From assembly GCA_023255955.1 (NCBI GenBank), contig JAGDWD010000008.1:64845-128844 (forward strand): a stretch of DNA of 64,000 bases, in the 5' to 3' direction. The notes under the pieces were generated by a model. It did not search any database. It was not told where the DNA came from and saw only the letters and a list, made by a program, of their open reading frames with translations. Within the stretch, counting starts at the first letter, position 1. Every line of letters starts with the position of its first letter. This DNA comes from Desulfurococcales archaeon (GTDB lineage Archaea > Thermoproteota > Thermoprotei_A > Sulfolobales > NBVN01). The position numbers were made by a program, and so were the translations under genes. Of this stretch, positions 5,550-17,206 are shown piece by piece.

Positions 5550-5815
5550 AGGTAGATTCTATGGACATGTTAAGTAAAGAAAAACTTAACTCTATACACA
5601 CCCAGATGAAAGCATTTATCACTCACTAAAGCATATACAAATGGGGCTATAGGTGACAGAGTTTATGTTTGTTCTTGCGTATACAAGAATAGACGAGATC
5701 AATTGGGCTACTGTACCTCGAGAGGTTTGCAGAATTCTTGAAGTTAATGAGTTTCACGAAACTGCTTTTTCGAGAAAGGGAATCGCTGTTTAGGAATATG
5801 CGGAGGGTGAAAATT

Positions 5816-8800
5816 ATGAGTATTAAAAATAACATGAGATTCATAGAGTCCACCGACTTCCCAGTAGATGTCGTTAATGAGGCATCTGCTAGCGAGAAAC
5901 AAGGTGGTGGCCGTCCGCCTCATTGGGAGATGGTGTTCTGGTGGACTCGAAAACCTCTCGCAGGGGCAAGAGCAGTAGTAGCAGGTGCACTTCTACCAGC
6001 GGAAACGAGTTCCTCTGACTTCAAGATCTACCTCGGGTTCACCGAGAAAACACCTCATAGAAAAAGACCAAACATATCGCCAAAATGGAGAGAGGTATTC
6101 AGTAAAGTCAAACTCCTAGATCCTTTCGCAGGCTTCGGCTCCATACCGCTAGAGGCTGTCAGGCTAGGGATAGGCGAGGTCGTAGCGGTCGAGCTACTGC
6201 CTGTAGCGTACATATTTCTGAAGGCTGTTCTCGAGTACCCGAAATGGGCTATCGATAAAGGGGTTACGCAGAAGCTTGTCAAGGATGTGGAGCGCTGGGG
6301 TAAATGGATAATCGAGAAGCTGCACGAAGACCCCGACATAAAGGAGCTGTACGACGATGATACAGCAGTCTACATAGGTACATGGGAAGTGAAATGTCCA
6401 CACTGCGGTAGGTGGACACCACTCATCGGTAACTGGTGGCTAGCCAGAGTATCCAAAGGCGCGAGCGAGGAAAGCGAGGAGGAAGAAGGTACAAAAAGCG
6501 GTGAATTCGAGCACCTAGCATGGATGCAACCTGTTAAAACCGGGGACAGCATAGCAATTAAAGTAGTAGACCTTAACAAAGAACTAGGAGTCAAAACTAT
6601 AAAAGCAAAAGTTAATGCAAGACAAGGTATTGTAGTAGTTGCAGGCCGGAAATACCAAGTACCTCAGAAAAACATAGACGCAAAAAGAGAAACCACAACA
6701 TGCCTCCACTGCAACAACCCAATACGTAAAGGCATGGAAGACTGGTATGTTAAAGAAGCACTCAGAGACTGGAATCAAAAACTAGAACAATACCTCACTG
6801 GACAAATAGACCTACAAACACTCAGAGAAACAGTGAAAGCGAGACTAAGGTTATTAGTCAAAGTAAAGAAAGCTAACAAAGACCTAGAATTCGAACCTGC
6901 AACCAGAGAAGACGATGAGAAGCTCTGGAGAGCGCTAGAGAAGCTGAGACAGATATGGGGAGACCCAGACATACCAAGAGAGGGAATCTCTCTTTATAGT
7001 GTGAGGTATCTGTTTCCGATTCTCTACGGTATCACTGAGTGGTATAAGCTCTTCAATCCACGCCAACTCCTCACACTAGTCAAACTCGTAAAACTAATCC
7101 GCGAAGCAGGAAAACAAATAGAACAAGAAAAACAAAGGGAGGGGTGGAGCAGAGAAGACGCACACAAATACGCAGAAGCAATAACAACATATCTAGCAAT
7201 AGCACTGTGCAAGTTCGCTGATTATAATTCTATAGTTTCAGGATGGCAGATAACATATTTAATAGCAGCCCATACCCTGGCTATGAGAGGTATAGCGATG
7301 ATCTGGAATTGGGGAGAATATAATCCGCGATCAAATTACACGGGCACAATAGAAGCCATAATGAGTCGTAATATAATTAATGCATTATCCTATCTTACTG
7401 GGGCTCTGACTAACAGTCCCACTGTAGTCAAAGTCCTTCGTGATAATGCTACTGAATTAAGTAGTCTCAGAGATAGATACTTCGACGTCATAGTTACTGA
7501 TCCGCCCTATAGAGATGATGTACCCTATGCAGAGCTTAGCGATTTTTACTATGTTTGGCTTAAGAGGGCTTTAAGCGATGTTGTTGATGTTGGTGGCCTG
7601 CTTATTAGGAGGCCTCGCTTTATTCCAGAGGCTTTCTTCCAGGATGGGGTTGAAATCGAGGTTCAGTGGAGGTATTTCGCAGATAAAGAGGTTAGCGAGA
7701 ATGAAGGTCGTTCAATAGTATTTAGGGATAAAGTTGATGGGGATAATGTTGGAAGCTTTAAGTACTTCAAGAAGCTTTTAACGAGGTCTTTCCAGGCTAT
7801 GGCGGAGAGACTAGTTGATGATGGGTTGCTTGTTACGTATTATGCTCATACTAGTCCTGATGCTTGGGAGGCTTTGCTTGAAGCTGGGTGGGGAGGTACT
7901 AAGCTAGAGGATGCCGAGCTAAGGGGTGCTAAGCTAAGGATTACATCTGCTCACGCTCTTGTAACTGAGTCTACGCAGCGTGTTACTGCTCGTGGTAAGG
8001 CAGGTCTCGATATTAGTATTGTGGCTGTGTGGCGTAAGGGTGTTAATGGACAAGCACTTGCCGATGAAGCATACGCTCAGGTACTTGATAAATGTGTAGA
8101 CTATGCTGATACACTACGTAAGAAGGGATTTGAGGGTGTTAATCTATTCGTTGGAGTCTTAGGTTGCGTGCTATCCGTATTTACTCAATATGAGAGAGTA
8201 GTTGGTGTTAAAAGTACTAGAGAGCTTGTAGAGAAGTATGTATATCCAGCTACTGCCGAGGTTATCGCACGTTCTCTAGGTGGTAGTGAGATGGCTGGGA
8301 AGCTCAGTAGCACGTCGTTATTCTATCTCCTAGGTAAAGTCCTTATTGCAAGAAGACCTAGGCAGACTCGGAGGTCGTTCGATAGAAGTACCGCGATTAT
8401 CCTGGCTATCGGTACTCGTAACGAGGTTAACGCGCTAGAGGGATATAGATTAGTGGAACGTGAAGGCGAAAAGTTCTATCTAATCGAACCTGCATGGGGT
8501 CAGCGCGACTTGGTTCAATCTATAAGGTCTACTCTAGAGACGAAGGGTATTAACCTAAGAAGCCCGGAGCCAAGAACAGCTGTAGATATGTTGCATATCC
8601 TTGAGTACTACGCTACAACACTACCTAGGAACGAACTTGATGAGAAGGTTAAGGATCTTCGCAGTAGGTATCCAGCGTTCTACGAAGAAGCTCTAACCCT
8701 CGTACAAATACTTACACAAATCCTTCCACCCAATGACCCCGAACGTGAACTGGTAGCACACGTTGCTTCAGCCTTAGTACCTGGTGGTGGAACAAGTTTG

Positions 8801-8830
8801 GATAGGTATTTCGTGAAAGGTGGTAGGTAA
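5816..8830 (+). CDS. DUF1156-type DNA amino-methyltransferase (N6-A or N4-C) with zinc-ribbon insertion
   Basis: N-terminus FIESTDFPVDVVNEAS...WWTRKPLAGARAVV matches my memory of DUF1156/COG1743. Has SAM motif I (LLDPFAGFGSIPLEA), catalytic motif IV (IVTDPPY) and two Cys pairs (CPHCGRW, CLHCNNP). The ORF is open from 5738, but ATG 5816 is preceded by GGAGGGTGA and is the more likely start (ATG 5834 is also possible). Confidence 0.85.
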   Translation: MSIKNNMRFIESTDFPVDVVNEASASEKQGGGRPPHWEMVFWWTRKPLAGARAVVAGALLPAETSSSDFKIYLGFTEKTPHRKRPNISPKWREVFSKVKLLDPFAGFGSIPLEAVRLGIGEVVAVELLPVAYIFLKAVLEYPKWAIDKGVTQKLVKDVERWGKWIIEKLHEDPDIKELYDDDTAVYIGTWEVKCPHCGRWTPLIGNWWLARVSKGASEESEEEEGTKSGEFEHLAWMQPVKTGDSIAIKVVDLNKELGVKTIKAKVNARQGIVVVAGRKYQVPQKNIDAKRETTTCLHCNNPIRKGMEDWYVKEALRDWNQKLEQYLTGQIDLQTLRETVKARLRLLVKVKKANKDLEFEPATREDDEKLWRALEKLRQIWGDPDIPREGISLYSVRYLFPILYGITEWYKLFNPRQLLTLVKLVKLIREAGKQIEQEKQREGWSREDAHKYAEAITTYLAIALCKFADYNSIVSGWQITYLIAAHTLAMRGIAMIWNWGEYNPRSNYTGTIEAIMSRNIINALSYLTGALTNSPTVVKVLRDNATELSSLRDRYFDVIVTDPPYRDDVPYAELSDFYYVWLKRALSDVVDVGGLLIRRPRFIPEAFFQDGVEIEVQWRYFADKEVSENEGRSIVFRDKVDGDNVGSFKYFKKLLTRSFQAMAERLVDDGLLVTYYAHTSPDAWEALLEAGWGGTKLEDAELRGAKLRITSAHALVTESTQRVTARGKAGLDISIVAVWRKGVNGQALADEAYAQVLDKCVDYADTLRKKGFEGVNLFVGVLGCVLSVFTQYERVVGVKSTRELVEKYVYPATAEVIARSLGGSEMAGKLSSTSLFYLLGKVLIARRPRQTRRSFDRSTAIILAIGTRNEVNALEGYRLVEREGEKFYLIEPAWGQRDLVQSIRSTLETKGINLRSPEPRTAVDMLHILEYYATTLPRNELDEKVKDLRSRYPAFYEEALTLVQILTQILPPNDPERELVAHVASALVPGGGTSLDRYFVKGGR

Positions 8831-15905: not shown

Positions 15906-17004
15906 TGAGTTAAGAAGTGTTAGAGCAATTCCACCACTAAGCGTATTTGAAGATATTGACGCGCTCTACATATCCCATTTTCATCTAGATCACCTGGGGT
16001 TACTTGGAGCCCTTCCTCCTGGAACCAAGGTTTATGTTCCAACTATCAGCATGCTAAAAGTCATTGAAGAATGGTATAGGGCAAGTCCTACCTGGATGGC
16101 AGAACTGCCGCATAAGCTACATACAGAAGTCATTGAGTTGAAACCTTACCGAGAGGACGAGCTTGGGGTAATCCCGATACCTGTTAGTCATAGTGCCTAC
16201 CCTGCCGATTCCTTTATCTACCGAGGACACAATTCTATAGTTTTTTATAGTGGTGACCTAAGAGTTGATGGACTATTAGGACCCAGAATCAATACATTAG
16301 AAAACATAGAGAAGGTTGTCGGTTCAGAAGGTATTGATATTGGTTTATTAGAAGGAACGAACATAGGTGAAGTAGAGACACCTGTAGGTTCTGATGAATT
16401 TAGAATCATGGTGAATAAAGTTCTAATGAGCAACAAGCTAGTTATAGTCTCAATCGATCCCGTAGATTTCGAGATGTTCACGACAGTAACAGAACTTGCT
16501 TCGCTTAGTAGTAGAACAATAGTTATAGCATCTCCTAGATTAGTCGACGTTCTTCCACAATGGCATAATAGCATGTTAAGTACAGATACCGAAAAGTTAG
16601 CAGTAGCTTCCGAGATAGAGAAACCAGCATTAATACCAGTAAACTATGTCAGCTTGAAGCAAGACGTATTGAAAGACCCAGATAATTTTCTACTGATACA
16701 AGAACCCATAGGATTCCTAGAAATGCTTAGACGAATGAAAACCTGGGGAGAGAAACTACAGACAGAAGCAATCTCTATCCTGACTATGCCAGAGCCTTTA
16801 GAGTCTGAAGCAGAAATCGAGGAGAAGGTTCTAACATACTGGCTAAACATTTTAGGAGTACACATCTACAGAATCAGGATATCGGGACACTACTACCCAC
16901 ACGAACTAAGAAACCTACTAGAAGTAGTAAAACCGAGAAAACTAATACCAATACATACCAAGCATCCAAGTCTAGTACTAAGACTAGCTAAACAGGTAAA
17001 ATAG
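15844..17004 (+). CDS. metallo-beta-lactamase / beta-CASP (RNase J-like) nuclease, main fragment in the +1 frame
   Basis: HxHxDH motif (YISHFHLDHLG). C-terminal RISGHYYPHEL and LIPIHTKHP resemble beta-CASP motifs B/C. Overlaps the 15711 fragment. Confidence 0.7.
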   Translation: MSGSKYSKNTIVGRIHPLGINELRSVRAIPPLSVFEDIDALYISHFHLDHLGLLGALPPGTKVYVPTISMLKVIEEWYRASPTWMAELPHKLHTEVIELKPYREDELGVIPIPVSHSAYPADSFIYRGHNSIVFYSGDLRVDGLLGPRINTLENIEKVVGSEGIDIGLLEGTNIGEVETPVGSDEFRIMVNKVLMSNKLVIVSIDPVDFEMFTTVTELASLSSRTIVIASPRLVDVLPQWHNSMLSTDTEKLAVASEIEKPALIPVNYVSLKQDVLKDPDNFLLIQEPIGFLEMLRRMKTWGEKLQTEAISILTMPEPLESEAEIEEKVLTYWLNILGVHIYRIRISGHYYPHELRNLLEVVKPRKLIPIHTKHPSLVLRLAKQVK

Positions 17005-17206
17005 ACCCATTCCTCCTCAAACAAAGTACGACATAGAGAAACTCATCTTCAATAGCTATACCCAAACTAATCTATTCTTTTCCTATTAGAACACTCACAG
17101 CATAGATCTTTAATTATCTTAAGAATGTTCTAATAATCTCATCCCATCTTATCACCATAAAATTTTAAAAACTCTAGGGTCTCTCAGGGGAATATCCGGA
17201 ACCCGC

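Follow-up and report, generated by a model that had tools for sequence, protein, structure and literature searches.

The locus described here lies in a 64,000-nucleotide (nt) stretch of DNA, called the window below, from a Desulfurococcales archaeon (NCBI GenBank assembly GCA_023255955.1, contig JAGDWD010000008.1, positions 64,845 to 128,844 of the forward strand). Positions 5560-17206 of the window hold a co-directional run of genes for a DUF1156 DNA methyltransferase, a DUF499 ATPase, a small conserved protein, an SNF2 translocase fused to a nuclease domain, and a nuclease of the metallo-beta-lactamase (MBL) superfamily with a beta-CASP domain, preceded by the remnant of a further small gene. 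All the domain assignments made in an initial annotation, which was based on the DNA sequence, were verified by Pfam and PADLOC profile searches, whose matches agree with its description of the run as a PglZ-less, Hma-type defence cassette made of a methylase, a DUF499 ATPase and an SNF2-nuclease. The features of the locus are as follows.

5665..5820, + strand: remnant of an AbrB/MazE-type (SpoVT-AbrB) small gene, overlapping the methyltransferase start, with an in-frame TAG at 5785-5787
5816..8830, + strand: DUF1156 N6-adenine DNA methyltransferase, HmaB/MtsC-like, open reading frame (ORF) intact
8830..12251, + strand: DUF499 ORC/Cdc6-type AAA+ ATPase, HmaC/MtsA-like, a pseudogene read as ORFs 8830-10239 and 10185-12251
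12248..12691, + strand: conserved alpha+beta protein of 145-147 amino acids (aa) without a Pfam family, directly after the DUF499 gene
12654..15710, + strand: SNF2 translocase with a C-terminal PD-(D/E)xK nuclease domain (NOV_C/DUF3883), HmaA-like, ORF intact
15720..17004, + strand: beta-CASP MBL nuclease, RNase J-like, a pseudogene delimited by alignment with intact homologues
17005..17206, no strand: AT-rich intergenic stretch with 35.6% GC, the 3' edge of the conserved cassette

The genes are as tightly packed as the initial annotation had stated, with the stop codon of the methyltransferase gene overlapping the ATG of the DUF499 gene in the sequence TAATG (8828-8832), and a GTGA at 12248-12251. 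Comparison with homologues places the methyltransferase start at ATG 5816 and not at TTG 5738. The small gene and the SNF2 gene do overlap, as had been proposed for 12612-12691, but homologues support TTG 12654 as the SNF2 start, which gives an overlap of 38 nt that is kept in other loci. Likewise, the SNF2 stop codon (TAG, 15708-15710) is followed at once by a GTG at 15711, as described, although the MBL start supported by homologues is GTG 15720. Similarity to other loci ends at the MBL stop codon, after which the AT-rich gap reported previously was found again. The locus as a whole is indeed poorer in GC than its surroundings (44.3% in 5560-17206 versus 48.8% in the rest of the window), and the lowest-GC 11.6-kb stretch of the window begins at about position 8001, within it. 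The segment upstream (4.5-5.8 kb), which had been taken for a gene-poor spacer, holds a DUF5622 gene (4699-4914, 71 aa) and the damaged AbrB/MazE-like gene at 5665-5820. No tRNA genes, Rfam families or convincing flanking direct repeats were found.

The trio of methylase, DUF499 ATPase and helicase is a known combination, seen in surveys of HEPN and EVE proteins, named Hma by the authors of PADLOC and classified in 2026 among the BREX-related (BR) systems, which comprise Types 1-3 (PMC12839542). The methyltransferase of the window matches DUF1156 in Pfam (1e-11) and, among PADLOC models, MTase_II (3e-237) and HmaB (3e-57). It carries FAGFG at aa 104 and DPPY at aa 562 with its two CxxC pairs (CPHC and CLHC) in between, so that an insert with a Zn-ribbon lies between motif I and motif IV and the recognition insert is nested within the catalytic domain, as in BR/Hma methylases. 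The two DUF499 ORFs together cover most of the Pfam profile (1.7e-93 for positions 2-346 and 2.2e-73 for positions 358-977) and match HmaC of PADLOC (4e-56), their homologues being single proteins of 1110-1143 aa. The helicase-nuclease matches SNF2-rel_dom (6e-17), Helicase_C (2e-16) and NOV_C (DUF3883, 9e-20) in Pfam, and HmaA (3e-63) and DrmD (8e-64) in PADLOC; its GLGKT and DEAH motifs, like those of the methyltransferase, are present as annotated. The NOV_C domain occupies residues 920-1007 of the ORF when counted from 12612 and contains the D...IEVKG motif of the PD-(D/E)xK nucleases that distinguish BR Type-1.

Hidden Markov models (HMMs) of Hma consistently outscore those of Gao_RL/MANTIS, a Type-2 system, on these proteins: HmaC 4e-56 versus DUF499 2e-22, HmaB 3e-57 versus DUF1156_MTase 1.5e-23, and HmaA 3e-63 versus PLD_Helicase 2e-30. 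No PLD domain was detected in the helicase by Pfam, and the matches to PLD_Helicase and phospholipD_antiphage cover the helicase part only. Counted from the supported start, about 50 residues precede the SNF2 core, compared with about 105 in the HmaA model, a comparison of sequence lengths only. As the Tudor domain at the N-terminus of Type-1 helicases takes up roughly 75 residues (PMC12839542), the window protein would seem to lack room for it.

The last gene encodes a protein that matches Lactamase_B_2 (9e-8) and, weakly, RMMBL (0.002) in Pfam. In its homologues all the MBL motifs 1-4 and the beta-CASP motifs A, B and C are present, and D40, H86xH88xD90H91, H157, D179, E211 (EGTN), H390 (SGH) and H412 (IHT) are invariant in 11 intact sequences. 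The closest structures in the PDB are that of Enterococcus faecalis EF2904 (2AZ4, function unknown; 6e-17) and archaeal RNase J (4e-10), the nearest families being RNase J and aCPSF1. The cassette protein has the size of archaeal RNase J and shares all of its motifs, but it occurs almost exclusively within this defence cassette, and its score against the NCBIfam RNase J family TIGR00649 (3e-15, 55.6 bits) falls far below the curated cut-off of 400 bits. On both grounds we regard it as a separate, cassette-specific branch and not as a housekeeping RNase J. None of the PADLOC v2 models matches this protein or the small protein.

The small protein of the window gave no match in Pfam or PADLOC scans. 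Its family includes 34 clusters at 49-100% identity, and 53 representatives were found among 1.84 billion proteins; 22 of 34 close members weakly match DUF7680 (PF24728; best E 3.8e-4), a family for which we found no literature. An AlphaFold2 (AF2) model predicts with high confidence (pLDDT 91) strands at residues 10-19, 24-32, 38-43 and 68-71 and five helices, and no fold match was obtained in the PDB. MANTIS has a small protein, MtsB (DUF3780), at the same position. Identity with that family was considered, using for comparison five annotated plasmid proteins and 120 sequences from the protein database. It was rejected: neither Pfam nor PADLOC gave a DUF3780 match in scans of 34 and 47 family members, and the hhalign probability was 0.1% in every mode. 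Colinear motifs can be picked out by eye in the two families (E-x-x-[FW]-W-[YL]-S and G-x-x-R-x-A), for which there is no statistical support and from which we claim no homology. The AF2 model of DUF3780 (pLDDT 72) has the same order of elements as the small protein, namely three strands, a helix, a strand and four helices. Given these models and its place directly after DUF499, we take the small protein for a positional, and possibly a structural, counterpart of MtsB, without counting it as a member of that family.

We compiled a census of 80 loci from metagenomes, each containing an MBL homologue (35-100% identity), and counted for each gene the loci with enough DNA. Upstream of the MBL gene were found the SNF2/NOV_C gene in 75/78 loci, the small gene in 53/55, the DUF499 gene in 48/49 and the methyltransferase gene in 42/42, and the ordered five-gene set was present in 40/42. 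The spacing between the SNF2 and MBL genes ranges from -1 to 50 nt over 77 loci, with 17 nt as the median. All 13 loci that were inspected by hand read methyltransferase-DUF499-small protein-SNF2/NOV_C-MBL; they include GCA_053996695.1, a Desulfurococcus metagenome-assembled genome (MAG), GCA_027076025.1 with an adjoining integrase, several metagenome contigs, the complete genome of Stygiolobus azoricus (CP045483.1), in which the cassette is intact and adjoins csx1, and a Bathyarchaeia MAG that keeps the order with an MBL protein only 40% identical. The small protein and the MBL nuclease, which the initial annotation had regarded as appended extras, are near-invariant members of the archaeal form of the cassette and belong to it.

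The named hosts are Desulfurococcales, Acidilobaceae, Sulfolobales, Thermofilum, Bathyarchaeia and one Njordarchaeales MAG, and the genes that flank the cassette are unrelated between lineages. A syntenic core locus is thereby ruled out, and the cassette is best described as mobile. The horizontal acquisition suggested earlier for the window copy fits these unrelated chromosomal contexts, the low GC and the integrases that are sometimes near. Among the neighbours of intact cassettes elsewhere are an SSV-type integrase (locus L010, 14891-16237), a tyrosine recombinase (L016, 18385-19335) and, in Stygiolobus, a Csx1 CARF protein (L015, 11810-13177). The neighbouring stretch 11503-21260 of L025 holds a family-B DNA polymerase, two RadA/Rad51-like genes and Cdc6, and may be an integrated element.

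The relationship of this cassette to characterised systems is twofold. With Hma (BR Type-1) it shares a C-terminal NOV_C PD-(D/E)xK domain on the helicase, and all three core proteins score best against Hma HMMs among the defence models of their kind. It differs from Hma in having five genes and not three, in its gene order (methyltransferase-ATPase-small protein-helicase, against helicase-methyltransferase-ATPase in the bacterial examples inspected), and in a DUF499 protein without the HEPN RNase that is fused to it in 1370 of 2446 Type-1 taxa (PMC12839542). The plasmid matches from tblastn that were looked at first belonged to Type-1 systems of bacteria or to SNF2 loci unrelated to the cassette, and served for the comparison of gene order. 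With MANTIS/Gao_RL (Type-2: MtsA DUF499, MtsB DUF3780, MtsC methylase and MtsD PLD-helicase) it shares a small standalone protein after DUF499 and, as it would seem, a helicase without a Tudor domain, whereas the nuclease of MANTIS is an N-terminal PLD/HKD domain instead of a C-terminal PD-(D/E)xK domain, and MANTIS has no beta-CASP gene. The cassette thus has Type-1-like core proteins, a Type-2-like small partner and, in fifth place, a conserved gene for a beta-CASP nuclease. The same three core genes were described in the same order in archaea (COG1743, DUF499, SWI2/SNF2 helicase-nuclease, in some cases followed by EVE; Bell et al. 2020, PMC7641849), in a description that has no small protein or MBL gene. 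An EVE gene adjoins the cassette in the related locus L011, and the window has none.

The auxiliary nucleases listed for BR systems are HNH, HKD, PD-(D/E)xK, TOPRIM/OLD, HEPN, PIN and Schlafen (PMC12839542). The searchable text and supplements of that paper contain no relevant mention of a metallo-beta-lactamase, beta-CASP or RNase J, nor of Stygiolobus or Desulfurococcus, although its large neighbourhood tables might list the gene unremarked; a metallo-beta-lactamase is equally missing from the papers on MANTIS, Hma and EVE, and the small protein is absent from the searchable BR, Hma and MANTIS descriptions. The conserved five-gene form is apparently new to the literature, the family and its logic being already known.

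Mechanistic work on such systems, of which the initial annotation knew none, does exist. A 2024 study showed that the NOV_C domain of Halomonas HmaA acts as a metal-dependent nickase, is needed for defence against T4 and only nicks plasmid DNA in vitro (PMC11232893). In MANTIS, loading and activation of the methylase MtsC require both the DUF499 ATPase MtsA and MtsB, a small dimeric protein. MtsC hemimethylates asymmetric 6-bp sites; on unmodified sites MtsABC triggers the helicase-nuclease MtsD, and inverted site pairs are restricted best (bioRxiv 10.64898/2026.09.23.753747).

By reference to these relatives, we read the locus as a horizontally acquired, now decaying copy of a restriction-modification-like antiviral cassette, to which we give a probability of roughly 70%. 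By analogy with MANTIS, the DUF499 AAA+ ATPase, aided by the small protein, would load and activate the DUF1156 methylase on short asymmetric sites, where it would mark host DNA with N6-methyladenine; at unmodified sites on incoming DNA the same recognition complex would license the SNF2 translocase. The C-terminal PD-(D/E)xK domain would then nick or cut the DNA, as suggested by HmaA. We infer that the translationally coupled beta-CASP enzyme acts as a second effector, most likely an RNase J-like nuclease whose targets would be RNA or the single-stranded nucleic acid that the translocase-nickase exposes, and that it would take the part played in many Type-1 systems of bacteria by a HEPN RNase joined to DUF499. 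Recruitment of a beta-CASP enzyme to immunity has a precedent in Cas14 of type VII CRISPR-Cas, likewise an RNase J/CPSF73-like nuclease with MBL and beta-CASP domains when compared at the superfamily level; Cas14 is guided by a complex of CRISPR RNA and Cascade and has extra domains that bind that complex, while the cassette enzyme is a bare 427-aa protein.

Several points weigh against this reading. For the archaeal five-gene form both the assigned functions and the existence of a methylation motif are predictions, and by HMM score the core proteins are nearer to Hma (Type-1) than to MANTIS (Type-2). Halomonas HmaA alone protected from T4 and HmaB had no restriction-modification-like effect (PMC11232893), so that this logic is unproven for Type-1-like systems. 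The small protein has no detectable sequence relation to MtsB/DUF3780, and its co-activator role is therefore argued only from position and the order of secondary-structure elements. Finally, the MBL enzyme may act on RNA or on DNA, and its RNase J score is far under the cut-off.

The last of these points opens the most serious alternative, in which the beta-CASP enzyme acts on DNA as a 5'-to-3' exonuclease that enters the nicks made by the PD-(D/E)xK domain and turns them into irreparable gaps, forming a two-step effector with the helicase-nuclease. Some beta-CASP enzymes (SNM1/Apollo) are 5'-phosphate-dependent DNA exonucleases and provide a precedent. The tight coupling of the MBL gene to the helicase-nuclease gene in the 77 loci measured would suit such a partnership, and so would the behaviour of the HmaA nuclease in vitro, since a lone nick is easily repaired. 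However, the enzyme's nearest families are RNase J and aCPSF1, its weak RMMBL match is to an 'RNA specificity' domain, and the motif C residue is the invariant histidine of IHT. Callebaut and co-workers reportedly described in 2002 that histidine at this position marks RNA-acting members and valine DNA-acting ones. On balance we consider action on DNA unlikely, if still a serious contender, and prefer action on RNA or exposed single strands.

Whatever the effector does, the complete system cannot work in the window genome, as disabling lesions were found in 3/6 genes (AbrB-like, DUF499 and MBL), with the ORFs for the methylase, the small protein and the helicase-nuclease still open. In the DUF499 gene one T was lost at about 10183-10185, a -1 frameshift seen as an alignment gap at 10185 and, in the protein alignment, as a break between KTVFVKT and LADATRYRQ. 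In the MBL gene an additional base at about 15877-15879 causes a +1 frameshift after residue ~53; the frame that opens at 15720 gives residues 1-53 and the shifted frame the remainder, and together they align end to end with the intact 427-aa homologues. The AbrB/MazE remnant was recognised by tblastn with the 60-aa, MazE_antitoxin-annotated genes of loci L006, L008, L010 and L013, where this AbrB/MazE-type gene overlaps the methyltransferase start; they match 5671-5820 with 31-40% identity. The window sequence is identical (100% over 20 kb) in three separate assemblies (ENA ERZ1669249, JGI 3300019821 and Logan SRR6311222), so the indels are not an artefact of a single assembly, although the samples are possibly not independent.

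The history of the lesions could be followed in a sister strain (locus L032, Logan ERR14373512), which carries the cassette at the same chromosomal site with a flank that is 99.1% identical. Its DUF499 gene is intact and reads KTFVLADATRYRQ without interruption through the site of the break, showing that the window copy lost one T. As the two strains are almost identical across 7200-10500, this lesion is recent and not a conserved recoding site. In the MBL gene of L032 (9944-11110), a 100-bp deletion covering window positions 15737-15836 has removed sequence and the start codon has been lost, and at the site of the window lesion L032 has AGT GGA AGA versus AGT GGG AAG. The lesions being different, the MBL gene was inactivated independently in the two lineages. 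Decay of this kind is common elsewhere, since 9/80 census loci (~10%) carry split genes; further breakages of the MBL gene were seen in L006 (11509-12401, an Acidilobaceae MAG; frameshift and truncation) and as splits in L070 and L102.

Divergence between the window and L032 is mosaic. Hardly any change is seen in the segment 7200-10500, with 0-2 differences per 300 bp, the region of the methyltransferase insert (window 6900-7200) contains a 300-bp patch with 46 differences and indels, and 10500-15736, which comprises the C-terminal half of DUF499, the small gene and SNF2, is 3-7% divergent. At the sequence level it seems as if specificity and sensor parts had been exchanged by recombination.

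One could suppose that the window cassette still works, with DUF499 acting as two polypeptides, an AAA+ module and a C-terminal sensor module, or rejoined by ribosomal frameshifting. The split does fall between the AAA+ and C-terminal parts, both DUF499 ORFs are long and open, and no lesion affects the methylase, the small protein or the helicase-nuclease. We nevertheless hold this to be quite improbable, because the lesion is the plain and recent loss of one T relative to a near-identical sister strain, DUF499 is a single protein in all other lineages, two more genes of the cassette are broken, and about 10% of related loci are disrupted in a comparable, random way. Under our preferred reading of a decaying cassette, loss of DUF499 would abolish both methylation and licensed restriction, so that the helicase-nuclease ORF could persist harmlessly.

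It might also be argued that the MBL and small genes are unrelated neighbours, for instance a housekeeping RNase J and a chance ORF, beside a three-gene Hma unit, given that bacterial Hma/BR Type-1 systems need only three genes and that PADLOC has no model for either protein. The census largely refutes this explanation, which we rate as very improbable: the linkage is kept down to 35-40% MBL identity, in several archaeal orders and among unrelated flanks, and the helicase is missing upstream of only 3/78 MBL homologues, among them one N-terminally truncated match and one that belongs to what is left of a degraded cassette. Viral contigs yielded no member of the MBL family. Just as improbable is a divergent form of BREX or DISARM with missing parts elsewhere, for although the top scores of the SNF2 protein are to DrmD models (8e-64; NCBIfam DISARM_DrmD 1e-72) and DUF499 is a sister of BrxC, the DrmD score reaches only 245 bits where the curated cut-off is 610, the BrxC match is marginal (0.0015), and no PglZ, DrmA/DUF1998, DrmB or PLD was found in the cassette or its flanks or in about 90 related loci. 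This bears out the earlier statement that the locus fits the definition of neither BREX nor DISARM: PglZ had no match in the cassette proteins or flanking genes of the window and is not listed in related loci, and of the DISARM components only DrmD is resembled, by the SNF2 protein, with DrmA, DrmB (DUF1998) and DrmC (PLD) not found in the cassette or flanks.

Other parts of the window were also surveyed. Upstream of the DUF5622 gene lies a gene for a 489-aa protein (3061-4530) with no Pfam or PADLOC match. Downstream of the cassette, where GC stays low to about 20 kb, the segment 17207-19470 has the look of a decay zone, with two small ORFs without matches (85 and 131 aa), an ABC-transporter ATPase in pieces of 61 aa (18091-18276) and 148 aa (18288-18734), and a short rubrerythrin-like fragment (19015-19470). 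The segment 24261-32116 begins with a KaiC/RadA-like ATPase (weak PADLOC match to mad8, 6e-7), after which come six ORFs in the same direction, 145-550 aa long and without Pfam or PADLOC matches; its GC (about 0.45-0.49) is lower than at 20-24 kb and beyond about 35 kb, where values are roughly 0.50-0.54, and it is possibly another accessory cluster. A 1543-aa ORF (47576-52207), whose sole Pfam signal is an NPCBM_assoc/NEW3 repeat, probably encodes a large surface protein.

Mechanistic work on BREX-related methylation defences has been almost wholly bacterial, and the archaea of hot environments carry a distinct five-gene form. We put forward tentatively, at somewhat less than even odds, that this form is a fourth BR subtype confined to thermophilic archaea, in which the beta-CASP enzyme would be an obligate second effector acting with the SNF2-nickase and the 145-aa protein would correspond structurally to MtsB. 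In that case Tudor-less BR systems in general, and not MANTIS alone, would use a small co-activator for ATPase-dependent methylation. The window copy itself chiefly illustrates the decay of systems of this kind; the methylome and the genetics can be tested in Stygiolobus azoricus, whose genome (CP045483.1) has an intact copy. The cassette bears on how methylases are activated in systems without MtsB, and on how a mere nickase is turned into effective restriction.

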